A stretch of DNA of 53,267 nucleotides, counting the filler, from Jimgerdemannia flammicorona (lineage: Eukaryota): the NCBI GenBank assembly GCA_003990765.1. It is 2 parts of 2 records of this genome, joined end to end, with 100 filler letters (N's around TTAATTAATTAA, not from the genome) between each part and the next. Parts side by side here need not be neighbours in the genome. Positions count along the whole stretch, not along the records: positions 26,691 to 53,267 come from RBNJ01000717.1; 1 more part is not named here. The stretch is one strand, 5' to 3'. Both the position numbers and the translations under genes were made by a program. Of this stretch, positions 15,400-50,167 are shown one piece after another. The notes beneath the pieces are model-generated. The model was not told the DNA's origin. It saw nothing but the letters and a program-made list of their open reading frames with translations, and searched no databases. The stretch's first letter is position 1; the number at the start of each line of letters is the position of its first letter.

Positions 15400-16445
15400 G
15401 TAGCCTGTACTCTACTAAGACTTTAGGTATATATAAGCCCAGATTATCTCAGTATTTAGTATATATCTCTTAAGGGAAATAAGATCTACTCTATCAGAGA
15501 ACACCCACTCAACTAGAGCACTAGTAGCAGAAATAGTTAGATAGTCTTAAGCCATACTATATAGGCTAGAGAAGTCTATTTGATATATCTATAACTATTA
15601 CCCTAGGGGGTAGAATGGTGATTAGAATAATAGTTAAAATTAGCTCTATCCCACCAACTATCTGTAAGAAGACAAACCCACCTTCTATTAGTTAAGTACC
15701 TCTATGCCCTCCAACAGAATTATATAGTTACATACTAGTGAGAAAAATGATGAGTTTGTCTATTGATAGTAGTTCTTCCACTAATGGCTCTCTCTTTCTC
15801 TTTTTGCTAAAGTAAATATATGATAGAAGAGATCCTTCAGTATATTCATCTAGACTTCAGCTAGAACTTTGTAGTGATATATAGTTTTTCCAGTATGTTT
15901 CAATTATAACTTACTTGGCTTTCTCAATATAGTACTACTTCTAGCTCTGATCTTTATAGTATTGTAGCTTTAAGTATAGATCTAATACTGTTTTGAGAAA
16001 GAGAGTGAGTTTTGCTTTTTTGGAAGAGGTAACTACTATGCTAATATATTTGTACTAATTGAGTATATGATGGTATCTATTTTGAGGTAGTATTTTCTAA
16101 GCTTACTTAAAGTAATCTCTGATCTGGGCTAAACCAGAAATCATTACTACTCTCTAGTCTATTCTCAAGCTTGTCCTTTAGTCAATTAATCAAAAGATTA
16201 TATACTAGTATTATAGAGCTTATTGTTAGAGTGGTTTGTTTGACTATATCTTTATATAATTATTAAAACACTAGTAGTTAAGAATAGTAAATTATTACAT
16301 TACTATGTAGAGGCAGACAAAATGAATGTAGAGCCAAAGCAATTATTACTTACTTCTAAAACTCTGACAACATTCCTTAGTATATCCTACTTGCTTTCAT
16401 CTATAGTCTCACTCTATATTTTCTTGTTAGTAGTAATTGTGAAAT
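15400..16445 (-). pseudogene. Decayed hAT (Ac/restless-type) transposase, C-terminal half
   Basis: Minus-strand translation gives KLRKYYLK and TVLDLYLKLQYY (LDPR.K motif), then FSSLYSMA*DYLTISATSALVEWVFSD...LISLKRYILNTEIIWAYIYLKS**, a decayed hATC dimerisation domain (MARDYLAIPATSAPVERVFS), at about 15419-15590. Confidence 0.8.
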
Positions 16446-16449
16446 CTAT

Positions 16450-16638
<189 letters not shown>

Positions 16639-17931
16639 CAATTTTTTGGCTATTTATTATTTTCTGAATTAGTTTCAAAATATCATTTTTTTTAATCTCT
16701 TTGAATACTTATAAAACTCTTCTAATATTTCTTCAATGGTAATATTGTTATAATAAACTTATTTATAGTCTCATCTATAGATTGAAATAATTGGGGTCTT
16801 TGGCCATTTAGAATTTATTTTTTTCTAATCATTTCTCATTCAATAACTTATATCAGATAGAATCTGAGAGATAACTAGTAATATTTCAGATTTTTCATTT
16901 AAGTTCTTCTTTTAGTTATTCAGTTTAATTTAATAACTCTTTATTTCTCTCTTAGAGTTTATTAATTATATTGTTTATTATAATATTATATTTATTTTTT
17001 CACTTTAAACTGTCAAAGAAATACTCTGGATTTTGATATTTTTATTCAGTTATAGTATGAAAATGAAGAAAAATTTCCCATATTCTACCTAATTATGCTC
17101 CCAGCAGACACATCAAAGCCCTAAACATTTATCATCTAGAACCAGTGTCAATGATTTAAAAAATCAAGATTTCACTATAGTAGCCCTAGAACTAAATATT
17201 CAGTGGATCACTACTTTGTCTCTTAGTTGTTTTAGTTGTTAAAATTAAAATAACAAGGAAAAAAGTTACGAGCAAAGCGACAGCGAAAATAAATCAAGAC
17301 TAATTCCCAAGTGACGTCAATGTTCACTTTGTTTGGGTTTGTTGCAGCACGCCCATTAATGCATACCCATCTCGTATGTATGTATATGCGCTAAACTAGA
17401 TAGTCTCTCACAAAGACATTTGCTATCACACAAACGATGTTGCCCCGGCACATACCAGGGTACATCGGAAAAGGGGAATGGGAAATGAAGAAGACGGAGA
17501 AAACGAAGAGGTGGGAGGATGTTTTGGACAAGTAATCGAGACACCAGCTAAGAAGAGGTAGTTGGGATGATTTGTTCTTTCTACATGATGGATAAGTTGT
17601 CCCGGCATAATCATAACTTGTATAAGTAATAAAAAGGCCTTTTGTGATTGCATATTCATTTTGTCTGGTTTTGTTGCAGCACGCCCCATACATATAAGTA
17701 TATAAATTTATAATAATAAATTATAAATTATAAAATAATATATTAACTATTATTAATATAGGATAAAATAATATTTTATATTTATAAATTTAGATTTATA
17801 AAGTTAACTTTTTAATTCTTTATTTTTGAAATGAAATCCATTAATCAATATAGAACTCAGCTCAAAATACAAGCGATTAAACTGGGATGTGAGACGACTT
17901 CCGCGTTTTCATTGGCGATTAGCAATCTATC

Positions 17932-20900
17932 TTATATATGAACCACGGGTTGAAGGATCTCGAATGAGCCTGTTCCTCCGCCAACCACCTTACCCATCAC
18001 CAACCGTGCCGAAGGGGAGTCGAGCATGTCGAAATCGCCATGCCTGCCGTGGTGAAAACGTACAAATAATAAGTCATATAAACTCAGTGAAAGAATGCAC
18101 GATTATCAGGGATAGTAACACATACAGTGTAGCCTGTGTCAGAAAATGGCAAGTAGTCTCGAAACTCATTTTCAAAAACGGTGAGACGTTGGACTCGATA
18201 CCCGTACGGTTAAATGGCTTATAACCTCCTTCAAAGGTCTGTTATCGGAGAAGGGGGTGGAAGGGACGGTTACAATCGCAGCAATAAAAAACTCGCACGT
18301 GATTCACGATGTTATTAATATGCGCTAACCATATAATCAGCAATGAGTGTCAAATGTCGCGGATCGACTTCGATGCCATAGGCTTCAAACACGCCCGAAA
18401 TCTCATTCATAAGGGTAGCACGCGCGGCTTCCACACCTGGAATGGAAGTGAAATAAAATGGGTTAGTTTGTCGGAGAGTCCTATGGGTAGGCCTCCTCGA
18501 TATTCGATCGCTTTGATCATGTCTATCAACATTTCACAGTTCACTTACCATAAGTCCTCAGCATAGCCGCAATATCATTAGTACTTATCTTGTTCACATC
18601 GATCACATCATTGTATAACCACATTCCTCGCAGATTAACACCCTCAGTCGCCAAAGATTTGGTTTTGTCGTTTTCGGTAGGATTAATGTATTGAAAACAA
18701 CGTGAGATGCCCGGGATCTCGTGGATAATAACGTCGTGGCACACTTTCTCGACAATGCTGACCATTAGGATCTTCTTGGTGTCAGCCGGGAACTGGCAAT
18801 GAAAAGTGCAAATTAGTAATCACATCTTGATATATCTCGTACACTTTACAGATATGGAATCTCGGACCAATCAAACCTGCATCTCAATTTCGCACCATAC
18901 GCCGTCGGTGTTATCGAAGCGGTATTTCTTGACGTATGCACTGGCTTCCAAGATACGATCCTCCCGAGCCTTTTGTCTTTTTACGACCGCCGCGGTGGCC
19001 AATATCTTTGCTTCTTTATCTATATCATCTATACTATTGTCGTCACTGTTTTCTGCCATTTCGGCATCTAGTTCTTCCTCTTGGTCCAAAGATTTGTCCA
19101 TGGCTTGGATGACCTCCTCGTCATCCTCATCGGGCGCATCGTACGTGGCGTGTTGCGCACCGCGATTTGCCAAACGCGTAGCAGTAGCATCGCCATCACC
19201 GTCGTCAGATTCTATGGTGCAAAGAATGGTGAATTTATAGATGGCTGATTATCGAGTGATAATCGATCGCGTTTGCTTACCGTCTCCATTTTGCCCGACT
19301 GATTCAGTGTCGTCGGCGCCATTGTCCTTTGCTCGAGTTTGCCTAATCGGTTTTCCAATCTCAATTTCATCGGTTTCTAAATATATCACCAAAGGGTTTA
19401 GAATGTCAGCACAACTCTCCAGAACTCTGAGAAATATCAACCTGATAACTTACCAGCAATGTTGCCTTTGGATTTACGGTATACCTTTCTCAGATCTCTT
19501 AAAATGGCGTTTTCCAGCTTTTTGACAAACGCACGCTCAATAACATCCTCAATATGTGCGGGTCTCACATTATATTCTTCCAAATATTCGTTCTTTGTGA
19601 AGAAGTGCAATCGAATGTTGTAGATTTTGTGGCGTTGATACCCAGTCGCGGCGGTCTTTCCTGCCATTCGCTCCGTTACTCTAACTTCATCCATTATCTG
19701 ACTAAGTGCCAACCTGCTTGCATCCTTGCAAAAACTTGTGCTACGGTCGTTGGTCACTGTGGGAAGGAGACTAAGCAACATCGTCGGTGTCTTGATGTTT
19801 GCCGATGCCGTCATAACAATTTCGCGTAACCTGGGGATGCCAAGGGTGACGTTTTTGGCACCGAAGCCAGCAAAATGAAACGTGTTAAGAGTCATTTGTG
19901 TCGAAGGTTCGCCAACAGACTGCGCTGCCAACAGACCAACAGCTTCGCCAGGTTCGACTAAGCTGTGCAGATATTTCAAGTGCATTAGTGCCTTGAATTT
20001 GTTCTTGGTAAGACCTGCGAATCTCTCGTTGTTCTTAGTGATCTTCGAATCCTTCCCAAACGGAAGGTTATCCGGGTTCTCCTCAATGAACTGCCAGATA
20101 GCGGAACCGAAGTATAACAAAGAATAAATTAGACCGAGTTGCCCACCCCCCAACGTTTACATTGTAGTATATTAACACTCGTGAGATAACTGACCGTTTT
20201 CAATGCCTGCTGGAAGCGCTCTGAAACAACGCCTAGATGTCTACTTGGACTGTATTTTGATAATGCTGGGTCATATTTATGTGGTTTCTTTAGGGCTCTC
20301 CTGGAGTAATCTTCACCGATTTCAGTATCCAAGGCATTCAGTGCTGCATGTGGGTTATACTTCTGAGACAATGCCTCAAGATTTTGCGCCGAAAAGGAAA
20401 ATTGGAAGAGATGCTTCTGCTTTACAACGTCGAGCGAGTCCTGCCCGTAGTGGAACTGAGTATCGAAACACAACAAAATATGGATATTTGATGAAAATTA
20501 TAAAGCTTCTGTGAAATGCAACAGTCGACGTTTACAGAGATTACCTGCAAGACTGAGCCATCGGCATCACGGACGGTATGATCATAATGAACCCGAAGAC
20601 CTTCGAGATGCTTAATTAAGCAACGTTGCAAATAACCAGATCGAGAGGTTTTCACAGCAGTGTCGATCAGGCCTTCACGACCAGCCATGCAATGGAAATA
20701 ATATTCCTAAAATGCCGTAAAAAATTATTAGCGGTTTGGTTCCACCTCATTAAAACGATGACCCTCCACCAATCCCAGTTTCGACATGTACCTGTGGCCT
20801 GATACCTGTCAAGAAGCGACCCGAAATATATCCGCCAGCACGGGCTTCTGTACTAAACGGTTGGAATGATGGTAACGATTTTCCTGACACCATAATGGGA

Positions 20901-23900
20901 ACGCGGCGACCCTCCAATTCTTGCTGGCCTGCAGAGGATAGTACATTCCGTAAACAATGCATTAAAATGGAAAATGACATGCAAAGTAAAGCATACGTGA
21001 AACAATTTAAAGAATTACCAAGCAAGCAGGAGATCTGAGAGACGTTCACGGGTGAACCCTTGGCCCCAGATACGGTCATCATTTGCATGTTGTTTTGGGG
21101 GAAAAGCTTGAGCTGAAAATGGGGTTCCGATGGTTAGGTATGTTACTATTGTTATATAGAAAGGTGTCATCATCGAAATGGTAGACCAACAAGATCACTG
21201 CGTATTTACCAATCCATCCGGTATACATTTTCCTATTATTGAACTTGTCAGTTTATTCATTTTAGTTTTCAACGCATTATCGAGTCCAGCCAACTTTTCA
21301 TCATCACGCAGCACCTCTTCCATGTGGAGTTGGAATTCTGAGTAGAAAATACCCAAGCTCAAACCATCAGTAACCATGACCACATAGCTTGCGCACGCAG
21401 CAATCAGAAATGCACCAAGGCACGAAAGTCTATCCAGCATGTGACACGGATGAAGATCACAGAGAACTAGCCCAGCCTTACCACGATCGAGTGTCTCTTT
21501 GTCTGCGATCTTCGCTGTCTCTGCCAGGCCCATATACTCCATGTGCGCATCAGCACCATCGTTCTTGCCTTTGTCGATCAAATTGCGACGCCATTTGTCG
21601 CCGTCCTCCTGCGAATGAAATTAGCCGTCGTGTGGGAATCATTTATTTTTCTCGACTTCAATGGATTACTCAATTACGACTACATAATTTGAGACTCACC
21701 GTCAATCGCAAATCATCCATCCGACAACTGAACCCCTTCCACTGCACGTATTTCGTGAATAGTCTCCCCAGAATGCTGAGTAGCTTGCCAGCAACGGGGG
21801 GGCCATACAACTCATAGCATGAATGCACCATACCAAATGACGAGGCGCCGAATTGGGATTTGTCTAGAACACCTGTGATCAGCTCACCGTCCATGAAAAG
21901 AATTGTACCCTCTTCAAGGCCATGAGGGCCCCAATATTTGCCAGGGACTTTGGCCTTAGAAGACATGTTGAGAGGCGGGTGTCCAACTGTCAGATTACCA
22001 AGGATTGTCGAAATCTGTAAAAATCGGTTCTTGTTAACTCATATACATGATTGTCACGGAACACAATCAGACAGCCCCTCCTCTACACGTACCACCTGTT
22101 TGCCTGTCCACATTGGTAATGGCTTACGAATTGCAGGCGGAACCGTCAAAACTCTCCCGCCACCAGTTCCATCATCTTCGGGCCTCAGTGCTCCATAAAG
22201 GATTTGCATGTATTCCTCACGAGAAAGAAACGTGTCGCGGGATGTCATCCACACTCCCGTGACGACATGATCCTGGATTAAACCACGAAGGGGGTTACCG
22301 GAGGTGGGGACAAGGTATTGGTTATCTGTGTTGGCAATCAGTGTGGCCTCAGCACGAGCTATTTCGTTCTGAGGGAAATGTACGTTCATCTCGTCGCCGT
22401 CAAAATCCGCATTATACGTATTACAATTGGCATAATGCATGCGGATAGTTTTCTCTCCCGGTAAGACCCGTGCGCGATGCGCCATGATGGATGGTTTATG
22501 TAGTGTCGGCTGGCGATTCAACAATAGCAGATCGCCATTACGGAGGTGACGGTAAACCTTTTTGTTTGTCGGTTGTGTGCGTACTGGGTATGCGCCCGTC
22601 ACCGACGAAGATACCGTGGAATCTTGAGGAGTCAGGAGTGTGTTGGCGAGGGCAATGCGAGACTCCACGCTCAGATTAGCCTAAAGGCGTTGTTCAGTCG
22701 CAATTCAATATCAGACATCTTCTATACCCAAGTAGTGAAAAAAATAAAATAAAATAAAATAAAAACCCCTTGCGAATTTCTATGTATTAAAGTAGGAATT
22801 GTATATACCAATGAGATTAGTGACCCATCTTCATGCTGAACATATGTCGATCCAGGCCACTTCTCAGGTCCATTTATCACCGCCCTCATCATTTCCTTGA
22901 TATTGTAATGTGTTACAGGCTCCGGATACGTCAACTTCTTGGCGAATACAGGAGGTATCCCAATCTCCGATGTTTCAATGTTTGGATCCGGCGAAATTAC
23001 TGATCGTGCCGCGTAATTCACACGCTTACCCATCATATGCTTTCGAAAGAGACCCTCCTTTTTCTCCAGCGCCTGTCTTATTCCTGCCGGGGGAAGCTGT
23101 CGTCCCTTCAGCACCATCGGGTTTTTCGTGGAATCTATAAACGAATTCACGTCGTGCTGGAGTTGAATGATGCCCGAAACCAAGAGATCAAATGCACGAG
23201 TACGCTCAGTTCTGAGTGGGTGCTTAGAATCCGTCATGGCGGCTTTGAACGCTGTGTTGAGGTCACGAACACGATCGCATGCATTCAGTATTTTGCTGAG
23301 GAGTTGGTTCTGCGGGGATTCAAACAGTTTGTCGCCCATGACCGAAGCCGGTCGGAAGCGTGTCGGTGCAACCGGAAGTGTTTCAATAAAGAAGAGATCC
23401 GGACTGGCACGGTTTGTTTTGCGACTATGAGGGCCGCGAGCACCATATATAAGGGAGGTGATCCGTTGCTCTCTCTCGAATAAAAGGCGGATATGGTCGC
23501 GAACGTGGATTGGCGTCATGTAAGTTTGACGCGTGCCAATAGATCTCTTTTCGTCAACCTCGCCTGCACCCGATCCGTTTGTCTTCCGTTTCGCATTTTC
23601 CTCTTCGCCATTTCCTTCTTCCTCACTCGTTTCTTCTGCGTGGTTGGTCACCATCATGTTTTCCTCCCTGTCATCTTCTCCATTATTCGCGTTTTCCACG
23701 TCCCTGGCATTATATCCGTCCTCCTCGGCCTCATCGTCATATACCTCCGTTACATTCCCAGTGGACACTCTATCCGCGACTTTCTTCTTCATAAATAAAA
23801 CGTCCGTTGCCACCATACCGTGAGCATCCATGTGCATCTGTTGCTTCTTCGTCAAAGAAAGCAGGAACACTTTTGCAAACCCGTCCTTACGGATGGCGCG

Positions 23901-25060
23901 AGCATACGCACCGCAATTTTCGCATTTCTTTTTGGCGATAACGCGTTTGAGAAACTCGCCCATCACCTTCTTGCGTTCATCATTAATAAGTGTGACTTTG
24001 TAGGAACCAGTGCTGGAGCGTTCCGACAACTCTTCAGCAAGGGCGTGTTTCACGTAACAGTCTATGGGAAATAAATTGGAATTGGATCAAGTCAGACATA
24101 TTCAAAATTCTCTTGTCATGAGCGGATTTCTGGCAGTTATAGAATCGCCATCGATCACAAAATACTCACCAATCTTCCTCATAAAAGCGTCAGCTCCCTC
24201 CTCTTCGTGGTCTCCATCGTCTAGGTCTACATTTTCTGCAGCCTCCTCTTCCATCGCTTTCTTTTTTCCTTTCCCGATATGCGGTCGCAGTTGGTCTAGC
24301 CCCTGGGCCTCAAAAATTAGGCCATGTTGCAAAAGAGTCAATTTCGCAGCCAGTCTATGGGACTGATATTAGAAGACGGTAAACATATCAGTTTCTTGCA
24401 AGTGATATTCGAAATTTGTTCATAATCCCCTCTGTTCCAGAGGATTTGACTATACCTCTACTTTCCCCATACGAAACTTGTGACAGTAAAAGCATTTCGC
24501 ACGCAGTATGGCAAAAAGGTGGTTGAGGAACAGAGGGTTGAAAACGGGTACGGGAAGCTCAATGTGTCCAAAATGTCCAGGACATGAGAAATGATCAAGT
24601 TGACATGTAGCACAGCTGCATATAGGCAATCATATAAATAGAAATAGATGAGTGCGGTAGGATTGGCAATAGTTTTCGATTGTGTTATTCGCAAACGCTG
24701 TCCCGCAGTCCGTTCATTGAACAGCATCAAGCGTACCACGCCTGGTATACTTCCGCCAGTTGTTAGCACCCATGGTTGGAAGGTTCTTGTTCACATCCGT
24801 TAATACTCCAAATCACAGCTGTCATTCATATTGGAACCATCCGTCTCGAACCTCAGCAAGAGACAGTTTACATACATATGGTGTTTGTCATAAGGCCCGA
24901 GTGCAGGATCGTACAGACCGCCTTTGGTTGGATGATTTAGATTATCGAAAATTGTAGGATTAACAATTTGCTTGACGGATATCTTCTTGATTTCGTCAGA
25001 GTCGTAAAATGAGAAAGAGACCGAGGTGATCTCGGTCCCAAGTGGTCGCGCGATGTTCAT
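17932..25060 (-). CDS. RPA1: DNA-directed RNA polymerase I largest subunit (A190), about 19 exons
   Basis: Starts [19 protein letters not shown]. Contains GLYDPALGP, the [10 protein letters not shown] zinc site, [26 protein letters not shown], catalytic [10 protein letters not shown] (about 22390-22420), [44 protein letters not shown] and [12 protein letters not shown]. Ends [28 protein letters not shown] with the stop at 17932-17934. GT-AG introns can be traced between the ORF fragments. Confidence 0.97.
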
Positions 25061-29710: not shown

Positions 29711-32492
29711 TAAGAAGGAGGTACATCTTCTTCAAGTCAACCATCTCAAGAGGAATGTCCTCCAGCAAGTATACTGCCAATAAGCCAAACTGCACAAGAA
29801 TATCATCCTGGAGCCTAGAGAACAAACCACCTTCGAAATCTTTGCACCACCCAACCCCAGAAATTTTTTCTTTGAACCCAATGAAGATATCTCACACCTG
29901 GACATAGAAGGACACGTATTCCCCAACAAGATGAATCCAGTATATTCTCGAGTAACCAACTGAAGTTGGGAAACCATCATCTTGCCAAAAGGAACTATCA
30001 TAGGGCATCTGGTGCCTTTTCTCAGCCAAACTTATAGAGAAGTTTATGAACTAAACTTATCAAGAAATGGCAAAAGGTTCCAGAAGAAAGGAAAGGCCCC
30101 TCTGTGACCCAGGAGATAGTAAAGCCTTTCACCAATATTGAAGAAGAATTGACACCCCAACAATAGCAACAACTAGTAGAACTTCCCAACAAATATCAAG
30201 ATATCTTCACTACTAATTATGGCAACCTGCCATACAATCTATCATATTACCACAGCATAAATATACAAAATGCAACACCCATCCAGCAGAAACTCTATAG
30301 AATACCCCATTACTTGAAAACATTTGAAAAAGAGCACATTCAAGAACTCTTAGACAATGGAGTTATCTGACCCTCTACCAGCCCCTGGGCCAGCCCTATA
30401 CTTATTATACCAAAGAAAAGAAGATGGAGACTCTGTATAGATTACAGAAAACTCAACTCAGTCACTGAAAAGAATGTCTATTCTTTGTTCAGAATTGATA
30501 ATCTTTTGGATCAGTTATAAGATACCAGATACTTCAGCAGTATGGACCTTTTCACAGGATTCCATAAGATCTCCATAGACCCCAAAGACATTCAAAAGAC
30601 AGCCTTTCTTACTCTAGAAAAACTGTTTAAATATCTCTGAATACTCTTTGGACTTTGCAATACACCCCCCACCTTTCAGAGAATGATGAATTCAGTCTAT
30701 ACCCCCTTGATCCATCACTACCTGATTGTATATATAGACAATTTTAATATCTATTCAGTAAATTTTGAAGAACACCTGTACTACCTAGAGGAATTCTTCA
30801 AGCTCACCTGCAAGAACTACCTGAGACTCAATGTAAAGAAATACTATTTCAGAAAACAGAAACTTGAATTCCTTGGATTTATAGTTTTGAAAGAAGGAAC
30901 TCATACAGATTTAAAGAAAACTGAGAAGATTAACAACTGGTCAGTATCCAAGACCCTGAAGGAAACACTATCATTTCTGATACTAGTATCCTACTATAGA
31001 AGATTTATTAAGAACTTCACCCAAATCACTACCCCAATCTGAGTCCTTCTCAAGAAAGAAGTACCTTATAAATAGACAGAATTACAAGAAAAAGCCTTCA
31101 AAGAACTCAAGAACCACATGACCACAGCACCAATCTTTGTGTGCCCCAATCTATAGAAGCTATTTATCTTGTACACAGATGCTTCTAAAGATGGCCTAGG
31201 AGCAGTTTTAGCCCAAGAAAAATCTGACCAACAGTACTATATAATAGCTTATGCAAGCTGAGCTAATTAGCAGCAGATGAACTATAGTAGCACCAAACTG
31301 GAATGTCTTGCAGTCATATGAGCAGTCACTCTGTTCAAGTATTACCTCATCAGAAAAAGATTCAACCTGATCACAGACCATATAGTCCTCAAATAACTAT
31401 TCAACTGCAAGAAACCTACCAGAATCCTAGTTTGCTGGATCCTTATTCTTCAGGATTACAAAATAACCATTATCTACAAAGTAGGGAAAGCTTACAACAA
31501 TATTGATATACTTTCCCACCAGCCCCAATAAATCAGAAAAAGGATGTTCTGAGGAACTACACCCTAAAGGAAACTCCTCAGACCATTAAGACACAAGAAG
31601 ATCTCATCTGAAAAGAACATCAAAAAGCCCATCAAGGATAAGTAAACATAGAAAAAAAGTTGTGAACAACATACCAACATTGGCCCAATCTCAGAATACA
31701 AGTCTGTAACATACTCAAGAAACGTGACACCTGCCAGAAGTACCAAGGAAGGAAGAATTATCAAGCACCATTGCAACCAATTGTACCACTAGACAACATC
31801 TTTCAGAGATAGAGAGTAGATATAATTGGACTCCTACCCATTACACCAAGAAGAAATAAATATATTCTTATATTTATGGAATATCTAACAAAGTGGCCTG
31901 AGGCTTTCCCAATAGAAATCACAGATGTTTTAACCATTGTAAGCCTTCTCCATAGACTCACACTCAGATATGGACTCCCAGAAGAACTTATCTCCAACTA
32001 AGGCACAGAATTCATCAATAACATAATCACAAGTTATACCCAAATTTATAAGATCCACCTCAAACAGACTATATAATATTACCCTCAGACCAATGATATG
32101 ACAGAAAAAATGAACCAAACTATCAAGAAAGGACTTGCCTGAATCAATCCTACCAACTGAGATCTCTGCTTATCTGAGATTCTATGGGAAATTCAGAACA
32201 CCCCTGCTATCTCTATAAAATAAAAGCCATTCAAAATGATATTTGCCAAGAAAACCAGAACTGCTGACTATGAGAATCTTGGAGACTTCCTCAAGAAGGC
32301 AGAACAGTTACATAATCAGGCCCAAGTTCAGATTACCAAGCCCAAGAAAGACAAAAGAAGTACTATGACCAGAAACAGAAGGATCAGAAGATCAAGATTG
32401 GAGATCAAGTACTAGTTTGAAGAAGCATGATTGAAACAAACTTTGCTGCCAAATTGGAGCCCAAATGGGAAGGATCTTATCTTGTATATAAC

Positions 32493-34987: not shown

Positions 34988-36108
34988 CTATATAGGCTAT
35001 TAAATACTATAATTATATCGAAAATTATATAGTTACTCTTAAGATCTAAGTACAGATCTCAGTAGAGTGAATTCGGTTACATGCATATCATAACTGTAAT
35101 TGATAATCTATAAATTTGAAATGTTAGTTTCTCAAGAAAGGATCAATTTTGAGATGAGATATGCACCACCTTGAGAAGAACAACATTTCAAATAGAGAAC
35201 TACAAAAAATCGTCGTTGAAGTCGTTAGACAGTTAGGGACGAAATTGTTTAACAACCAATGCCGAGTATGCCGGACGAATAATAGGTAAACAAGGTGACC
35301 CAAGCCATTGTCGGAATTGCGGGCGTGGAAAATAGAGGATGGGTTCAATAGGAACATCGCCGGAGATCATAGAACGCCCGGCGACAGGTTGCTCATCTCA
35401 ACTCACAATCGCCGAGATGCCTACACGAGCGGAAAAGAGATGTGAGTTCACTTTCTTCAGCTTCGGCGACATTACCTCTGCAAGGTGTTGTCATTAAGCA
35501 TTTTATGTGAATAGTTTCGGGGCTTGACAAGACAGACAAAGCTGTAACATTCATCTTAGATATTGGGTCATATAAAAATAGGCTGTAATTAAGCAGAAAA
35601 GACCAAGATAATTATGATGCCATGTCAAAGCTTGGTTTGCCTTTGCTCAGAAGTACAAAGACTAGATCAACAATGACTGAAAATGTATCATATTCTCTGA
35701 TGAGACTAAGATTAACTGCCTAGGATTATACAGATAGATATGGGTGTGAAAGAAGTCTAGTGAGGGACTTACTGATTGTCTAATGATGGTCATAAAATTT
35801 CTATCCATTATATTACATTTCCAATATTGGGATGCACTGATAAGTAGATAATAATTTATTTGAAATCATTTAAAATTCGCAATAGTTTACATAAACGGCC
35901 TTCTCGGCTGAAACTTTCGATTCCAAAAAACTATTCCACAGCAGCTTCCATTCGTCAAGGCTTCCAAAATAATTTTTCTGATCGATTGTTCGAAGATTTG
36001 CTGGGCGGAATCTGCGCCAAAGTAGTTTTACGCCTTCCAGAGAGTGATATCAGATTTAGCAGGACAAAAAAAATGGCCCATGAAATACATATCAACTTGG
36101 AACAAATA

Positions 36109-39100
36109 TTACCTGGCTTGCTTTGGTGCAGAAGGCACCACGCTTCTTAAAGTGGATTTTGTGTATAACCGACTGCGTGAACTTTCTACGAGCGTGGACC
36201 TCGACCCGGAGGCGATCGCGGCTTGTATTTTTTTAAGATGTGCCGAGGCTTCAGGGGTGATGTTCCGCCAATCTTCTGTTTCTATGCCTTCAAGATCACA
36301 CAACACCTTGTCGATGGTCGGGCGCATTTCGGGGTCAGGGTTCCAGCATCTCATATAGATATCAGAATATTCGGTCGGTGTTCCCGGGATGGGTTCTTCG
36401 CGCAATCCAAGGGCGGCAGCATCGGGAGGATTGATTGCATTTCCTCGAGGACAGAATCTTGCAGTAATTTGCCATAGAATTGTTCCAAGACAGTATATGT
36501 CAGATTTTTGTGTATAAGACACAATGATCTCCTTGAATGCTTCCGGTGGGAAATACTCAATCTGCCCGTAGATGTGACTACCATATTTTTGAAAGTGTTC
36601 GACAGTATTGCTTATACCAGCATCAATGATCATAGGGTTTAAATGGGTGGTATCTAAAAACACAATATTTCCGGGATGCAAGTCACCGTGGATCAAACCT
36701 GCTTTGTGAATCATTTGCAACCTGCGGGTGATCTCGGTAGCAATCTGCCACACTTTCAACCAGGAATTTAGTGGCGATATAGTGAGGAGTTGTGTAAGAT
36801 CACCACCAGTAGCGTATTTCATCACCAAAATGTAACAGCCAGTTGTATCATCCATCGATAATCCTATGACTGTGGGCACCGCTGCACTCTGGGAGTTATT
36901 GTGGATCTGAAGGTAGATGTTGACTAGTAGCTATTTGTAACAAGAAAAATGAATTATCATAAAAATTAATTGTAAACATTAAACTTTAAATTTGTAACAG
37001 AATAAGTGAAACCCACCTCATATCGCAGTTGATCTATTACAATGATACTCCGTTTCAATATCCTCAAAACAACAAACGTTTTCCGTTTCTGATTATCATA
37101 CACCATGGCTTTGTATACAGTTGCAAATTCACCTTCGCCCAACTTTTCTATCAATGTGAATTGGCGGTAAGGTATCCAAAATATGCAACCTGCAACCTCA
37201 ATCATTCGTAGCATTGCCAGGCACTGAAAGAGCTTATCCTCGTCACCGGGAAACTTGGATTTAAGCATTGACAGAATACCGGCATCAGATGTTTTAAGAA
37301 TAGCTTGAATCTGATCAAAAGTATAAGGGACCTTGGTGGAAAGATCATTTGGAGGAGGCGGCGAATAACTTGAAGCTGTCCATTAAAATGAGCAAAAATG
37401 TAAATATTGTAAACTGTATCCCTGAAACCATAGATAAACATAGTTCTAACATACCAACGCGGGTCGCGTTTCGATTCAAAGCATCACCAAGGAGGCGTGC
37501 GGTTTTGATAGTGATATTGTTCCCTACATATAAAAAGGGAGGGGTGAATGCACACGGACAAGCCATGAGTTGGAGGCCATCAGGTAGCTACAAAACCACA
37601 TCTCACAGTTTTAATATACCAATAATATGAAGCGTTTTCAGAGTCGTGTTCTGCATCAGAGATTCGGTCAGTGCCTGTGCTCCCTCATCGCTGATATTGG
37701 TGTCTAAGAAAGAATAACGGATGGATGAGCAAACACGCCTATGTTATGAGCAGTATCACGGAGTTCTATACAAAAATTCACACAGTTCTAACATACGATT
37801 GAGATTCAGCATAAATAGGGTCACATTTTTCTTCAAAGTTTCGGCCAATGCGCGTGCTCCCTCTGCACCGATGATATTAGCTGAATTCAAACAGAGAATA
37901 TATATTCAAGAGTAAGCAAGTTGAGATAAAATATATGAAATAGCTGCAAACAAGCATTCATACAGTCCAAACATACATTGAAGATTAAGCATCGTCAGGC
38001 TCGTGTTTTTCTTCAGAGATTCGGCCAGTACGCGGGCTCCCTCAACGCCAATATTGTTGTCTGAAGATAAAATAAGATGGGCGATATCCATTTCATGAGC
38101 TGGAACCTACCACGCAGTTGCATACTAAAAATTACACAGTTTAAACATACAGTTGAGATTCAGCATTGTTAAAGTTTTGCTCGATTTCAAAGAATTGGCT
38201 AGAGCGCGTACACCCACATCGCCGATTTTGTTGCCTAACGATTAATAGGAGATAGATGAGCCATAACCACAATGTCAGCTGGAACTCATTATGGAGCGGA
38301 AAATAATTATTCCCCCATTTATAACATACGATTGAGATTCAATATAGATAGGGTCTTGTTTTGCGTTAGAGATTCGGCCAGTGCGCATGCTCCATCTGCA
38401 CCAATATTATTGGCTCATGGCGAAAAAACAAATAAGCTGGTTGGGAGCTTTAACACAAGAAAGAGTTTCAAACAACTGTTCAATAGGTCAAACATACATT
38501 CAAGATTAAGCATGGTCAGGGTCGTGTTCTTCTTCAGAGAAACGGCGAGTGCGCGTGCTCCCTCAACACCAATGTCGTTGTCTGATGAATGAAGAAAATG
38601 CAAAAATTGTTAGCTGGCTTTCACCAACCAGCTGCAAAGAACAGCAATGTAGTTAAAACATACGAATGAGTTCCAACGTAGTCAGGATCCCGTTTTGCTT
38701 CAGCGACTCAGCCAGTGTTTGTGTTCCTATAGTACTGATCGTGTTAACTGAAATTGAAAACAAAGCGGTGAGCTAGAACTCATTAAGCAGCGGCAAGCCA
38801 CAGTTGACACAGCCCTAACGTACAATTAAGATTCAGTGTGGTCAATGTCGTGTTCTGCTTCAGAAGCTCAGCAAGTGCATATGCTCCCTGGACACCGATA
38901 TCTTTGGCTGAAGATGAATAAGAGATAGTGGATTAAACACGTATAAGCGGTGGGTTGGAATATATCACACAGCAGCAAACTACAGTTCACATACTTCTCA
39001 TACCTCTGAGATTCAGCGTGGTCAGGAACGTGTTGTTCTTCAAGGATTCGATCAATGCACGTGTTTTCTCGCCACTAGTTCTTTTATCTGAACACCACGT

Positions 39101-40891
39101 GTAAAGGGTTAGCTATATTTCAGTGCAAACTGTTCCAAAACACAGTACGCACCTGAAGGATCACCAAACCACAACTCGAAATTGGGGTTTGGCTCGAACA
39201 CCAAAACGGGAGCCTGCTTGTCGGTAGAAACGTTCCTTGAGTTCAATCCTTCCGATGTCGAGGTATCTAGCGCGCGTTCAACAGATTTACAACAAGCGTC
39301 AACATCCGAAATCGGAGCTTCTTCGAAGCTGGTGGTCGTCCCGTCGATGTCTGTAATGGTAATCAAGGGGATGCTATGGGAGGCTGCATGGGGGGGGTGC
39401 GGGGAGAATATTTGGGAGATGGTGGCTGTCGGCTCTTTTGGCTCCGGAGAGGCCATTTGGGATCTTTTGGCATTCAAAGTTTTCGGCTGCGAGGAGTGCA
39501 TTTGGGAGGTATTGGCTGGCTGCGGGGGAGACATTTGGGGGATATTGACATTCAACCCTTCTGCTAGTGAGGAGAGCTCCCAAGGTTGTGGTGGAAATAG
39601 TGACTCTTCACTATAGGCAGAAAAAAGGGAATGCTGGGTCAGTGAACAAGTGGAATAAAAGCAAATAGATAGAATGTGTCAGTGTCATACCAAAAGCTAT
39701 AAAATGGGATGTCATTGTAAAGGATGAAAATGATATACTTCAAGCAATTCACTAGTGGAAGCCCGCTGCTCAGGATCTCGTTTAAAGCATAGGTTCATGA
39801 AATCCTCCAGCTGGCTGTTCAAATTCTCCGGATAGGGTGGCCGACCTTGCTCAAAAATTTTTCGCTTCATCTAATATTAAATTGTATAATCTTATATATA
39901 AATAATTAATTGATATATAGTGCAACAAGACAATGCTCTGATAAAAGAATCTGAAAACAATAAACCTCTTTATCTTCTAGGTTGTCATCTTCATAAGGCG
40001 CCTTGCCGTGGTTAAGCATCTCAAGAACTACGATGCCTAATGCCCAAATGTCAGCCTTTAGGTCGATGACCTCGCCTTTACAAACTTCAGGAGCCCAAAA
40101 TAGTATGACGCCAGCATTTTCGACTGACGAGTCCACAGTAGGCGCCGAGGAGCTGACGCCGAAGTCACCTGAATGAGTGATTAAGTGAGATTGAGGGTAA
40201 GAGGATAAGTAGGAATTAGCATTGGAATGTGCGAAGCCTCTCAAGATGATATAATTGTACAACGTATTTACCAATCACAATGGTGTTGTCTTTGCCAAGG
40301 AAGACGTTTTCACATTTAATGTCGCGATGGATGTAACCGTGCCTATGAATTTCCGAGAGGCCTGACACAAGCTGCGGTATTTGTGTTAGCCGAATGGCAG
40401 GATTGAAGGACGAGGCACGAATTATTTGGGGTGGTTCCAAAACGCCATACATCGTACAACATATCTTAAGGGGTATAAAGCACTATACTGACCCCTTTGA
40501 GGATAAAGACCATTTGCGACAAAGAGACGCGGTTGACGGAGCAATACTCTTGCAGGGTCCCGCCGTCGTAGTACGGCGTTATGAGAAAGACGTAGCCTTC
40601 GTAGATGTGGACGCTGAGTAGTCGCAGAATATTTGAATGTTGGCATTTGGCCATGGTGTCTATTTCGGTTTCAACGAGCTCCTTGGGCATTACAACGGTT
40701 TCCGAGTCCTTGCTGTACACGATCAAGTACTTTTTGATGACCACAATCTGTCGCGCGCCGCTGACTTCGTGGCACAGGTACACACTGCCCTGTGCCGAAG
40801 GCCATGTGGGTTTTATGGCGCTGAGGCCCGCATAATCGAATTGCGGATCAGAGAAGTGTATGGGGACGCCCTCTATTAAATGATCCGCCAT
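36109..40891 (-). CDS. Dual-kinase LRR protein of about 1,100 aa: STE20-like kinase, P/S-rich linker, 10 RI-like LRRs, TKL-like (pseudo)kinase; 17 exons
   Basis: Hand-traced GT-AG exons in one frame: 40891-40493, 40371-40272, 40168-39966, 39870-39739, 39633-39153, ten LRR exons between 39087 and 37455 (or 37440), 37375-37017, 36930-36109. Kinase 1 has VVIKK, HRDIKCEN, DFG, WAPE, DIWALG. Kinase 2 has WIPYRQF..IEKLGEGEF, HGDLHPGNI, DAG, YFPPE, KSDIYCLG, RCWNPDPEMRP. The N-terminus may extend by a few small exons. Confidence 0.85.
37440..39087 (-). repeat. Array of one-LRR-per-exon cassettes
   Basis: 84-nt exons at 39087-39004, 38907-38824, 38747-38664, 38581-38498, 38413-38330, 38234-38151, 38060-37977, 37880-37797 and 37703-37620, plus 37523-37455 (or 37440). 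Consensus xNxIGxEGARALAESLKKNTTLTxLNL. Confidence 0.92.
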
Positions 40892-41391
40892 GTGCTTGGG
40901 ATGGAGGACGTCGTTTAGGTTGATGAGTTTTGACTAAGCGTCACGTGAACAAGAAAATAAGTTGGTGTGGCTTGGTCTTTGTGCGTACCGGAAAAGTCGT
41001 CTCTATCGCAACCTGTCAAGCCTGGAAAGTGACCTATTCTACGCGGATTCCTCTAGTAGCCCACACCGAAAATCAAATACGTCAAATCTGGGCTATATTG
41101 CTCCTGCAACCTAATCCATTTTTAAAGCACTGCCCAAGTTTACGGGGATATCTATAGAAGCACTTGGCTTGTGTATAGCGGTAAGTGAAGTGTATGGATC
41201 CCTTCCGCCATTGTTCAACATGAATTGCACCATATATCCACAAATGTGTCAGGAAACCACTTCGAATTAACATGCTTCATTAAAGACAAACCATATCACA
41301 AATGTAATAAAGAAAAAAAAAAAATACAAATGTACAGAATATTAGTTAAATATAATTAAAATATTTATTAAAGTTATTATTTATAATGAAT

Positions 41392-44964: not shown

Positions 44965-47900
44965 ATGGAAATACATCCCCTCACATTCTATAGATATACT
45001 ACTAAAGAGTCAATCCTGACCTTCATTAAAGACTTTAAACAATTTGCCACTATATGAGCCCTTGGTATAGATGCTCAATTGGCCCTTCTACTAGTCAGCC
45101 TCAGAGGACCTACCAGAGACAAGTTCAATGCAGTCACTATTGCTGATGCTGGTGCAGCCAAACTTGTCAACATGAAGGCCTTCCTCAGAACAACATATTA
45201 TACTGAAGAGATCAAGCAAGCTCTCAAGAATCAACTCAATACTATCTGCCAGAGACTTAGTAAAGATTCCAACCCATTCTATACCCAAATCTGCCACCAG
45301 ATTATCTTGGCTGGCTATGATGACTGCCTCAAGGAACAAATAGCAGATTCAACCTTCCTCAAAGGAGTTCACCCTGAAATTGCCCTAGCAATCTGGTCTA
45401 CCTCAGCTGCACTGACCCTTGATCAGAAAGTGGTCTTTGTATAGAGATATTGGACTACCAGACATCCTGCTGAATACTTAATAGAGAAAATAACTGGTAT
45501 TAAGATGGAGCCATCAAAGCTAACTAGTATCATACCTACCACAGTTGTAAACAGACAACCAACCCCACCTACTCTCAAGACAGCCAAAGCTGACCCAGTG
45601 GAAGAACTTGCCAAGCAGTTCACTGAGATGATTGCACACCTTGGTGATGTTGTTAGAGAAGTCTGAAGTGCCAACAGAAGACCAGTATAGAGATTTGCAG
45701 CTGCTACAGAAGAATGCAATATCATATACTTCAGATGTGGAGAAGAAGGCCACTATGCAAAGAATTGCATGACTGAAACAAGATGCAAAGCCCAACCAAG
45801 CAATGCTAGCAGAACCAGAGAACAAACTAATACAGTAGTTATCGAGGAGATTGGTGACACTGATGATAAAGAATACTATGAGGAGCTCAAATTCTACCCT
45901 GCTACTGAAGGTACCAGAACCTGGTCCAAGCCCTATGACAAGAAGAGCAACAGCAAGCCAGTTGGAAGACTAAAGAAGACCCCAGCTGTCACTATTCAAA
46001 GTAAGACCCAATCTGAGGAGATTGATCAAGATATAGAGTTAGATAAAGCTGCCCACCAAATCATTGAAGGCACTCCTCCAGTCTCAAGAGAAAGTGAAAG
46101 CAAGAAGGAACAGAAGCTGTACAAGACCAAGATCTACTAGTATGATATCTACAAGGACCTCAAGAAACAGAAGGTCAATGTCACCTTTGGACAGCTAGCT
46201 GAAGTCCCTGCCTTCAGACAGCAGTTGAGAGTAGGACTTGCAACTACTGCCAAGAATTAAGAGTACAAGATTTTAGAAGCTCACAATGTACAGGAAGAAT
46301 CTGAGAACTCAGGTGAAGAATCTGAAGACCAGTGCAAGACATCAGCCTATACTCCATGTCAGATTGAAGACTGTATCTTTGATGCCATCATTGATACTGG
46401 TGCTGGAGAATGCCTCATGAGCAAGAAGACAATTGACCACCTAGGTTGGGACATTGAAGAGTCCACCAAGATGGTCTATGTTACAGCAGATAGTATATGA
46501 GCTACCCCCCTTGGCAAAATCTGAGAAGTCTCCATCAAGATAGGAGGAGCTACCATCTCAGTAGATGTGATTGTCACAAGTACTACCAACTATGACATCC
46601 TCATTGGCAACCAATGGCTTTACAAGGCCAAGGCCATCATTGACCTCAATGCCCAGAAGATGCAGATCAACTATAGAGGAAGAAAGATATGAGTCTCTAT
46701 CAATGTTCACAAAGGAGTCCTATCAGACATAGAGGAAGGAGATGAAGAGGACACAGAGGTCTTCATGTACTTGGTGAACAAGAATAAGAACAAGACACCC
46801 AAGCTCACAGATGAGCAGTGGTACAACAAGATTATCAATGGGTATGCCCCTCAAGGAAGATGCCCCCATGGTACTAGGATATACTGCACTGAACACCTGA
46901 ATGACTACTGGTCCTATATCAGTGAAGTTAGGAAAATCTGTCAACAGAAATATGAGCAAGAAGCCACTGAAGCAAGAAGGAAAGCTGAAGAAGATAACCA
47001 ACCCCCAGAGCTTCAGGCTGACAGTGATGATGAGGAGGAACAAGAATCAGACATCACTCTCAAGGTTAAGAAGTTTCACCCTGAAGCCAAAATCCCAGAA
47101 TATAAGACTGAAGGAGCCATAGGAATGGATATTGCCAGCATTCAAGATGCTACTCTTGAACCACAGACCACCACCCTACTTGGCACTAGAATTGGAGTCA
47201 AGCTGCCAGAGAACCATACCAGAATTATCAAGACCAGAAGCAGTCTGGCCAAAAGCGAAATCTCAGTTAAAGGAGGAGTAATTGACCCTGATTATACTGG
47301 TGAGATCTTTATCATAGTCAGGAATCACAACCCCACCACCCCATTTGAAGTCAAGAAGTATGACAGGATTGGCCAGATGCTGGTCCACGAAATCAAGAAG
47401 CCCAAGATCATAGAAGCCATTGAACTCATCATGACCAAGAGAGAAGAATAAGGCTTTGGATCTACTGGAAGAGGAGCCTATGCTGCCACCAAGATTACTG
47501 AACTTGAGCACAAGAAAGACAAGGACCAGAACAAGCATATATACACTATTGGAGAAAACTTTCCCCTAGAGGAATAACTTCTCAAGGTCCTGCATCAGAA
47601 TGCTACAAACTTCCAGGATATCTACAATCAAGAACCCAAGCACTACTATAAAGTTGACACTGGTAATACCAAGCCCATCTACCAGAAAGCCAGACCCATA
47701 CCACCTGCCTACAGAGAATGGCTGTGAGCAGAACTCAAGGAAATGGAAGAAGCTGGAATCATCAAGCAAGCTATCAGCCCCTGGACCTCACCCATTGTCC
47801 TTGCCCCAAAGAAAGGAAGCAAGCCTGGAGAGTTTGCACCAAGACTCTGTATTGACTACAGGAAGCTCAATGCCATCACCAAGAAGGATAGGCAGCCCTT

Positions 47901-48942
47901 GCCAAATATTCAAGAAATTCTTACTACCCTTGAGAGTGAAGCCAAATACTACACTACCTTGGATCTGTTCTCAGGCTTCCATCAGATTGGTCTCACTCAA
48001 GATGCCAGTGAGAAATCAGCCTTCATTACACCTGATATCACCTATATCTACCTGCGAATGCCATTTGGAATATGCAATACCCTAGCAAGTTTCCAGTGAA
48101 TGATGAACAGAGTCTTTAGCAATGAGATTGGAAAATAGCTCTTTGTCTATATTGATGATGTCAATTATATACAGCTAGCCCTCAAGAAGCTCAAGGAGCA
48201 TAGCCTCTACATCAAGCCCAAGAAATGTAAGTTTGCAGCTCAAGAAATCACCTATCTAAGACACCTCATCAACCAGACTGGAATCCACACAGACCCTATA
48301 AAGATTGAGGCTGTTGTAGCCTACCCAAGACTCAGAACAACTACAGAAGTCCATGCCTTCCTTGGACTGGCCAGTTACTACAGAAGGTTCATCAAAGGAT
48401 ACTCCAATATTGCAGCATCCATCTATGAGCTACTGAAGAAGGAAACCAAATTTGAATGGACCAAGGAGTACCAAGAAACCTTCAATGAACTCAAGACCAG
48501 GTTGACCCAAGCACTTATCCTCAGAAGACCAGACTGGAATCTAGAATTCATCCTGCAGACAGATGTAAGTGCTATAGGACTTGGAGCAGTCCTAGCTCAG
48601 AAGAAAGATGAATATGAATATATTATCTCCTATGCAAGCTGAGGTACCTGTAGAGCAGAACAAAACTACAAGTTATGTAAGCTTGAATGCTTAGCAGTAG
48701 TTTGGGCAGTAGACAAGTTCTACTACTACCTAGCTGAGAAACACTTCACCATTCAAACAGACTACTCTGCTCTTGCCTGACTATTCTACACTCTGAACCC
48801 CAAAAGAATATATACCAGATAGATCTACAGACTGTAAGAGTATGACTGTACTGTCAAGCACTACTCAGGAAGAACCAATATCAATGCTGATGCACTCTCA
48901 AGGACACCCTGAAACACCCCCAACAAGACCATTCAATCATAA
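44965..48942 (+). pseudogene. gag-protease-dUTPase-RT-RNase H polyprotein of element B, single frame with premature stops
   Basis: ORF fragments starting at 45079, 45769, 46765 and 47743 share the frame of ATG 44965 through DALSR at about 48900. Confidence 0.9.
47053..47469 (+). pseudogene. dUTPase domain of element B, between protease and RT
   Basis: AKIPEYKTEGAIGMDI, KTRSSLA, GGVIDPDYTGEIFII, DRIGQ, REE*GFGSTG. Confidence 0.95.
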
Positions 48943-50167
48943 ATAAGGAGCTATACTATGGATTAATCAGCTATCTTAGGCAGGGGAAGATGTCCAACCA
49001 CCTTGAACCCTGGATAATCACTATTATCAACCAGACTTAGAAACAGTTTGAACTAGACAATACTACACTTAGAAAAGGAGAAAACTAGTAATATCTGAAC
49101 ACAAGAAGTATTATGTAATGAAGGAAGTATATGAGCAAGGACACCTAGGAGGAACCAACACATATGACAAGGTAAGAAGAACCATATAGTGGCCCAAGAT
49201 GGAAGAAGATCTGTGCCAATTTGTCAAAGGGTATGACAAGTGCCAAAAACAGAAATAAGATCAACAAGACCAGGCACCCAAGTCATCAAGAATTGAGCCT
49301 ATCTCCTTCCACCACATCACAATGGATATCATTGGGCCACCAGCAGTAATACTATCAGGAAACTGCTATATTATAGTTATTGTAAACCTCTTCACCAAAT
49401 GGATAGAGGCAGGAGCATTACAAGAAGCCAATGCTCTCTCTATAGCTGACTTCCTGTACCGAGAAATCATCTGCCACTACAAGACACCAAAGCAAATCAC
49501 AACAGACTGCGGCATAGAATTTGCTAATGGATTCCACAAGATAATATATCAGAAATATAAGATCCAGCACATCAAGACCACTGTATATCATTTTCAAGGA
49601 AATGGACAGATAGAGAGAACTAACAAGACCCTTAAGAACATCTTAGCAAAGATCTCAGAGATATATGAGAATTGAGATAACTATCTCCCAACCACCCTCT
49701 CTGTCCTACAAGATATATGGTCACAGAGCACACACTTTACCCCAAGGGAGCTGCTCTTCAGAGAAGAAGATTCTGATGGAACCTCAGTTATAAATCTAGA
49801 CCTAACTTAGAGACTGGTTGATGCAGAAATCCAGAGACTACACCAAATCAAGAAGAAGGCTGAAGATTACATCATCAAGTCACAAGCGCTGACAAGGAAG
49901 AATGTGGAAAAGAATCACAAGGCCCTAGAATCCATCCAAATTGGAGAAAAGGTTCTACTGTATCAAAATATAGTAGAAGCCTCATGGTCACGAAAACTGG
50001 AGCCCAAATGGAAAGAATCCTTCTACATATAAGATATCAAGAGAACTACCTTCTAGCTTAGAAAAATCTCAGAGACCATACTGACTATCATGGTACATAG
50101 GAACAGACTCAAGAAGTACCACAAACCTATACAAGAGAAGCAAAATGTGATATATAACCACTCATGA
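48939..50167 (+). pseudogene. Integrase of element B (no chromodomain seen)
   Basis: HHCC region GHLGGTNT...WPKM...DKCQ, DDE core in ORF 49322..49675, then KLEPKW and VHRNRLKKY. One frameshift near 49075. Stop TGA at 50165-50167. Confidence 0.88.

Follow-up and report, generated by a model that had tools for sequence, protein, structure and literature searches.

A fungal kinase gene with ten one-per-exon leucine-rich repeats, an array probably grown by old tandem duplication

The window analyzed here is a stretch of 53,267 nucleotides (nt), filler included, from the fungus Jimgerdemannia flammicorona (assembly GCA_003990765.1), and its minus strand carries a gene in which an array of leucine-rich repeats, encoded one per exon by ten short exons, lies between two protein kinase domains. 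The exons are uniform in phase and, with the exception of the last, identical in length, and the introns that separate them can still be aligned with one another. We consider the best explanation to be an expressed Endogonales gene whose repeat array stems from old tandem duplication and is constitutively spliced, and we give this reading a probability of about 0.68. Active skipping or shuffling of the repeat exons is not supported by any of the tests that were run.

Exon layout and repeat class

The array consists of nine consecutive exons of 84 nt followed by one of 69 nt, all phase 1-1. Three routes agree on this layout: a regular-expression and translation pass, direct inspection of the sequence, and a gene model based on the RNA junctions. 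A scan for the pattern AG-[84 nt]-GT gave eight of the exons, while the ninth (37703-37620), which has the donor GTATAT, was missed by the pattern. Every 84-nt exon holds 27 full codons and one split codon common to it and the next exon. The introns between successive repeat exons measure 96, 76, 82, 84, 95, 90, 96, 93 and 96 nt, and the intron 3' of the tenth repeat exon measures 79 nt.

Splice junctions were taken from two public runs of one organism, X1 and X2, which were compared as assembled contigs over positions 35900-39900. We treat both runs as RNA because their contigs skip predicted introns; the RNA status in the run records is a guess. The introns that are skipped have CT..AC ends on the plus strand, which corresponds to GT..AG on the coding strand. 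The features of the array are as follows.

39004..39087, minus strand: repeat exon 1, 84 nt, phase 1-1; degenerate N-terminal repeat; RNA junction 39087>39153
38824..38907, minus strand: repeat exon 2, 84 nt; RNA junction 38747>38824; weak Pfam LRR_6 match
38664..38747, minus strand: repeat exon 3, 84 nt; RNA junction 38747>38824
38498..38581, minus strand: repeat exon 4, 84 nt; RNA piece 38498-38581, junction 38413>38498; 85% identical to exon 7
38330..38413, minus strand: repeat exon 5, 84 nt; GAG acceptor upstream; junctions 38413>38498 and 38233>38329 (cut +1)
38151..38234, minus strand: repeat exon 6, 84 nt; junction 38233>38329 (cut +1)
37977..38060, minus strand: repeat exon 7, 84 nt; junction 37880>37977
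37797..37880, minus strand: repeat exon 8, 84 nt; junctions 37880>37977 and 37703>37797; 78% identical to exon 5
37620..37703, minus strand: repeat exon 9, 84 nt; GTATAT donor; junctions 37703>37797 and 37522>37619 (cut +1)
37455..37523, minus strand: repeat exon 10, 69 nt, truncated C-terminal repeat; junctions 37522>37619 (cut +1) and 37375>37455; frame check
37376..39003, minus strand: ten short introns, one 3' of each repeat exon, 76-96 nt, mutually alignable over about the first 60 nt

Of the 11 introns within or next to the array, eight are directly listed as junctions in X1 or X2 contigs (39087>39153, 38747>38824, 38413>38498, 38233>38329, 37880>37977, 37703>37797, 37522>37619 and 37375>37455). 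Two further introns, 39003-38908 and 38663-38582, were deduced from lengths within contigs: exon 5 and the linker exon that precedes the array are separated by exactly 336 nt (4 x 84) in X1, and exon 4 and the same linker exon by exactly 252 nt (3 x 84) in X2.

These results are in agreement with most of what an initial reading of the sequence alone (the sequence-only reading) had proposed for the layout. The nine phase 1-1 exons of 84 nt and their introns of 76-96 nt are borne out by translation and by the RNA junctions, the one-repeat-per-exon, frame-preserving symmetry by the exon model and its open frame, and the junction codon is indeed assembled from two exons. The tenth exon had been given as 69 or 84 nt with a bound at 37440; the RNA junction 37375>37455 sets the lower bound at 37455 and the length at 69 nt, so the longer alternative falls away. 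Since all repeat exons are symmetric, the loss of any single one would keep the reading frame.

On translation, the ten units form a gap-free alignment of 28-residue repeats, one per exon with the tenth truncated, and have the consensus NxIGxEGARALAESLKxNTTLTxLNL followed by the junction residue. They are leucine-rich repeats of the ribonuclease-inhibitor class, for which Hoss et al. (2019, PMC6642158) give the pattern LxxLxLxx(N/C)xLxxxGxxxLxxxLxxxxx over 28-29 residues. In the window gene the period is exactly 28, the leucines at columns 12, 16 and 25 (L12, L16, L25) never change, and the N, I and G columns show almost no variation. Pfam LRR_6 scores of single exons lie at 14-17 bits, below the cut-off of 23.4, since the exon border cuts the model midway and an exon covers the tail of one model copy followed by the head of another.

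The intron interrupts the codon directly before the conserved Asn of LxxLxLxxN, and of all repeat columns this junction codon varies most, with an entropy of 2.92 bits; the adjoining columns 3 and 28 vary too. The sequence-only reading had placed the variation around the splice junction, on the concave ligand face; this stands for the junction codon, which ranks first, but several convex-side columns are nearly as variable, columns 6, 7, 18 and 20 on the other face vary, and column 26, the x of LxL, is almost always Asn. Variability therefore extends beyond the concave face.

Origin of the array and the question of shuffling

The introns of the array retain a signal of common descent. In a MAFFT alignment with a permutation/shuffle test, 17 of 45 pairs of array introns gave z>3, as did 1 of 40 control pairs formed between array introns and the four other introns of the gene; mean identity was 58% for the array pairs and 51% for the controls. 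Because the array introns still align, the duplicated unit was an exon together with its intron, about 160-180 nt in all, and its multiplication explains the equal length and phase of all copies. Tandem duplication of this exon-plus-intron unit thus accounts for the growth of the array.

To judge from sequence divergence, the copies are old and without recent exchange. In the closest exon pair, 4/7 (85%), 12 of 84 nt are different, and seven of these 12 are third codon positions; the corresponding introns are 60% identical. Exons 5 and 8 are 78% identical and their introns 64%; the remaining exon pairs are 42-78% identical, and identities among the array introns run from 49 to 69%.

The preferred reading would accordingly involve the following steps. 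A unit of one 84-nt exon and an intron of approximately 90 nt would have been repeatedly duplicated in tandem via unequal crossing-over, each copy inheriting the same intron position at the codon before the conserved Asn, until the duplications ceased, probably long ago. Uniform size and phase would then be a by-product of this origin and no sign of use. The repeat exons would be spliced constitutively, and the curved arc of repeats may offer proteins a fixed surface for binding, by which a partner or regulator is brought to both kinase domains.

An alternative is that exon shuffling is ongoing in the germline, in the style of the Ectocarpus ROCO genes or of Tetrahymena, with recombination within a family of 84-nt exons yielding new orders and numbers of repeats. 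The homology of the array introns would fit such a process, as would the many transcript contigs, only 90-95% alike, that lie at high summed depth on the repeat exons and may point to a sizeable family. The exons of pairs 4/7 and 5/8 are also closer to each other than their introns, which could reflect conversion limited to exons. On the other hand, the closest exon pair is only 85% identical, and a six-frame profile scan of the 53,267-base window revealed no orphan, intronic or antisense repeat exon. The profile used was built from the nine 84-nt repeats and recovered only those nine, the truncated tenth not being re-found; the array introns, at 76-96 nt, leave no room for a hidden repeat exon.

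Comparison of strains likewise gives no indication of rearrangement. Strain X2 has the same exons wherever it is covered, with few differences, although no X2 contig spans the array. In the piece table of X2 against the window, repeat exons show 2 differences over 254 nt, the linker 9 over 481 nt and the second kinase 7 over 819 nt; the listed differing sites in the exons compared number 20, with 0 in repeat exons. The repeat is furthermore found, with the window-repeat profile, in none of the best 150 representatives of the second kinase, so nothing indicates that the module moves between these kinase genes. We regard ongoing shuffling as unlikely. The description of the exons as a shuffling cassette holds to the extent that the array did arise by exon-plus-intron duplication, which some authors count as exon shuffling (PMC6564038); the tests run gave no sign of a process that continues.

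Splicing of the repeat exons

Exon 5 had been singled out as a skipping candidate for its atypical GAG acceptor. The acceptor does have a G at position -3, but it retains the AG dinucleotide and is used in both runs: junction 38413>38498 occurs in two X1 contigs and one X2 contig, and junctions on both sides of the exon are present in X1 and in X2. Exon 5 is thus included in both. Among the 15 junctions listed from X1 and X2 contigs, none (0/15) joins non-adjacent exon borders.

Five odd junctions (37872>38350, 38393>38350, 38393>38829, 38561>38829 and 38864>38829) were weighed as possible skips or back-splices, a reading that was rejected. They lack CT..AC ends on the plus strand and lie off the exon borders; four of the five have extra letters, and the remaining one is marked 'between: not known'. 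The contigs from which they derive have a depth far above that of the cognate contigs. Given the wrong ends and borders, the extra letters and the much higher depth, we read these junctions as mis-laid paralogues.

Regulated or stochastic skipping of 84-nt exons, chiefly of the exon with the GAG acceptor, would produce an in-frame, shorter arc with altered scaffold binding, an effect that is reported of exon 5 of human NLRP3. The symmetry of all repeat exons, which keeps the frame whichever exon is left out, and the single acceptor with G at -3 speak for it, and human NLR genes of the same modular layout are alternatively spliced (PMC6642158). Rare isoforms could also be hidden by the assembly of contigs, and only 15 junctions are listed. 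Against this stand the two junctions of the GAG-acceptor exon, present in X1 and X2, the 0/15 skip junctions, and the five odd junctions, whose lack of GT..AG ends and position off the exon borders are as expected for mis-laid paralogues. We consider skipping of this kind very unlikely. The combinatorial diversification of recognition that the sequence-only reading derived from skipping and shuffling accordingly finds no backing in the listed junctions, in the search of the window for orphan exons, in the age of the copies, or in X2, which is the same where covered.

Several observations weigh against an old, constitutively spliced array. The junction between exons 6 and 7 (38060>38151) is absent among the junctions listed, the assemblies of X1 and X2 both breaking at this point, and the whole array is spanned by no contig of either run. 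Minor skipping isoforms may exist, and they could escape notice because assembled contigs drop rare variants. In X1, 96 of 109 contigs are only 90-95% alike and are piled at high depth on short stretches of the repeat exons, which suggests that the sample holds many related repeat transcripts. Finally, the 19 listed coding differences of X2 before the stop comprise 14 non-synonymous and 5 synonymous changes, a ratio that implies that purifying selection on the gene as a whole is not strong. These listed differences fall in the tail of the first kinase, the linker and the second kinase; overall constraint on the gene is loose, and the repeats are not its variable part.

With regard to the piled contigs, summed depth reaches approximately 4,900 at 38829-38864 and at other repeat exons, on stretches of about 36 nt, and the loose ends of the 90-95%-alike contigs continue into the next repeat.

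Two kinase domains and a linker around the repeats

Joining the exons named by RNA gives a single open frame that runs from the C-terminal end of the first kinase domain (exon 39872-39739) through the repeats to a stop codon at 35957-35955, across at least 15 exons with GT..AG borders. The order of the encoded parts is a protein kinase, a Pro/Ser-rich linker, the ten repeats and a degenerate TKL-like kinase.

39739..40891, minus strand: first protein kinase domain, several exons; upstream exon borders predicted; likely ATG 40891; last exon 39872-39739
39153..39633, minus strand: linker exon, 160 codons, Pro/Ser/Gln-rich; RNA piece in X1 and X2
37017..37375, minus strand: pre-kinase segment and N-lobe of the second kinase, 119 codons; GxGxxA loop; RNA piece; weak Pfam kinase match
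36113..36930, minus strand: remainder of the second kinase, TKL-like; Pfam PK_Tyr_Ser-Thr, E 1.7e-20; RNA piece
35955..36033, minus strand: last coding exon; stop 35957-35955; RNA junction 36032>36112 (cut +1); translation

The first kinase has Pfam Pkinase matches on the open reading frames (ORFs) 40466-40933 and 39906-40274, and HRD, DFG and APE-like motifs are present in the frame translations. RNA contigs connect 39739 to 39633, and the frame stays open over this junction into the linker exon (39153-39633), on which no Pfam family was matched. A 33-nt tandem repeat of 1.9 copies lies at 39485-39547 within this exon (Tandem Repeats Finder). On the flanking ORFs Pfam matched kinase domains and no others, and the linker gave no match, so that neither NACHT nor NB-ARC was found, and no ORF of the gene gave a Pfam match to a Roc or Ras domain.

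Only 119 codons separate the repeats from the body of the second kinase. In alignments with TYRO3 and EGFR, an Arg in this domain aligns on the beta-3 Lys of VAVK/VAIK; HGD takes the place of HRD, and DAG that of DFG. The motif set of an active kinase (beta-3 Lys, HRD, DFG) is thus lacking, and on account of these three replacements the domain is probably a catalytically dead pseudokinase. Its nearest solved chains are RIPK4, RIPK1, MLK and TAK1, which places it in the TKL group. Ten of the 12 close representatives that were Pfam-scanned, from 150 listed, have two to four kinase domains; some close representatives have an additional MLKL_N, TLDc or Ras/Roc domain, and P0001 has Peptidase_C14. 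The catalytic motifs of P0001 and P0002 are similarly degenerate (HSN or HND; DIG or DVG), and together with the second kinase these relatives probably form a pseudokinase clade. The window gene shares multiple kinase domains and degenerate motifs with these tandem-kinase TKL relatives, whereas its repeat is missing from the best 150 of them. Among the proteins returned, there was no ribonuclease-inhibitor-type array between two kinase domains.

Searches with the second kinase and with a 66-residue ORF holding exon 7 matched the gene to no public predicted protein. For the second kinase there was no identical public protein, and the best named match was one from Endogone sp. at 47%. The gene (35955-40891, minus strand) is probably unannotated or split in public annotation, although a nearby gene for an RNA polymerase I subunit does have a fully identical public protein. 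That it is a decaying, non-functional gene whose regular structure is a relic appears exceedingly improbable: the 14 non-synonymous against 5 synonymous changes among the 19 listed before the stop, the Arg, HGD and DAG of the second kinase and the lack of a match among public predicted proteins would suit decay, but the frame stays open through 15 or more exons bordered by GT..AG, both runs contain spliced transcripts of the gene, and the scaffold leucines of the repeats are invariant.

Elsewhere in the window, a gene for the largest subunit of RNA polymerase I lies at 19437-24086 on the minus strand; the protein best matched by its ORF 22722-24086 is from Jimgerdemannia flammicorona, at 100% identity, and the next is from Endogone sp., at 64%, which identifies the organism as a member of the Endogonales. 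Retrotransposon remains at 45691-49675 (plus strand) match Pfam zinc knuckle, dUTPase, RT-RNase H and integrase, the dUTPase within a fungal element of the long-terminal-repeat type being noteworthy, and a separate reverse-transcriptase fragment lies at 30641-31042 (plus strand). A very long T-rich low-complexity tract at 16244-16672 (plus strand) reads as poly-Phe in one frame and is surrounded by an AT-rich stretch with a guanine-cytosine (GC) content of about 0.25-0.31.

Comparable layouts in other eukaryotes

As the sequence-only reading had stated, layouts of one repeat per exon are on record in vertebrate NLR genes and in brown-algal ROCO genes. In most human NOD and NLRC genes each repeat exon encodes a single repeat of 28 residues, the exon border lies at a constant place in the beta-sheet and the exons are strictly frame-preserving; the authors regard this modularity as a prerequisite of alternative splicing (Hoss et al. 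2019, PMC6642158). In zebrafish NLR-B30.2 genes each repeat is likewise on a single exon (PMC4852459). The window gene resembles the human NOD/NLRC genes in repeat class, in its 28 residues per exon, in its frame-preserving exons and in the fixed position of the border, and so has the modular exons that characterize them. It differs from NLR genes in having no NACHT or other nucleotide-binding domain and in placing its repeats between two kinases, in a fungus.

The ROCO genes of Ectocarpus have 72-nt exons that encode a plant-type repeat of 24 residues (Zambounis et al. 2012, PMC3341825). Shuffling was inferred there from intronic and antisense repeat exons and from differences in repeat number between recent duplicates (PMC3341825). 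One repeat per exon of equal length, and the idea of a shuffling cassette tied to a signaling domain, are common to both systems, whereas neither an intronic nor an antisense orphan repeat exon occurs in the present window and, unlike ROCO/LRRK proteins, the window gene has no Roc/Ras match between repeats and kinase. In Tetrahymena, repeat exons of 90 bp, separated by phase 2 introns and with an amino acid encoded across the junction, stem from clonal expansion (Xiong et al. 2019, PMC6564038). Equal-length exons, a single intron phase, a junction residue from two exons and expansion by exon-intron units are shared with the window gene, and some of the Tetrahymena arrays are fused to kinase domains; the scale is different, with tens of thousands of 90-bp exons in highly variable number per gene, against one old array of ten exons, 84 nt long but for the last, in phase 1. 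No fungal report of a one-repeat-per-exon layout turned up in the literature, in a search that was not exhaustive and had most subscription journals outside it. The layout is widespread, and what is new is its occurrence in a fungus and its context between a kinase and a pseudokinase.

A metagenome scan queried with three of the window exons gave 67 loci. Most of these have contiguous repeats without introns, and 93 pairs of units are spaced by exactly 84 nt. In two of the 67, L005 and L008, 84-nt exons are split by GT..AG inserts at the identical phase-1 position. L005 (1-560) has a GC content of 0.29 and inserts of 54-101 nt, L008 (1-235) has one insert of 67 nt, and the two are of very different composition. 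The 66-residue ORF, a read-through of exon 7, matched a single protein, P0281, which is itself a metagenome ORF; its repeat units are 48-52 residues apart, and the filler between them starts in a way compatible with NGT read-through. P0281 is thus probably another 84-nt phase-1 array, as far as its translated sequence can tell.

The closest metagenome relative, L001, is 77% identical to exon 7 and has ten contiguous repeats. A single 54-nt insert with stop codons lies at the same repeat position (L001 540-593); it starts with GA and has no GT donor.

The intron position common to this Mucoromycotina fungus, L005, L008 and probably P0281 is the ground for a broader proposal, in which the 84-nt phase-1 exon would be an ancient pan-eukaryotic block and the fungal copy, set between an active kinase and a pseudokinase, would serve as a cytosolic sensor tunable by low-level skipping. 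Under this proposal the intron may be identical to that of animal NOD/NLRC genes and hence older than the split of fungi and animals. Plant tandem-kinase immune receptors offer a comparison for such a putative sensor. We hold the combined proposal to be quite improbable.

Taken together, these results add a fungal example and a new domain context to a layout that is in print for vertebrate NLR, brown-algal ROCO and ciliate genes. The apparent absence of the gene from the public protein sets searched makes it a small gain in annotation for a poorly studied mycorrhizal lineage, and the recurrence of the intron position in unrelated eukaryotic contigs raises the question of whether this position is ancient or has been gained repeatedly. 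If the reading as an old tandem duplication is right, uniform symmetric repeat exons follow from the duplication of an exon with its intron, and would by themselves be no evidence of a diversity generator.

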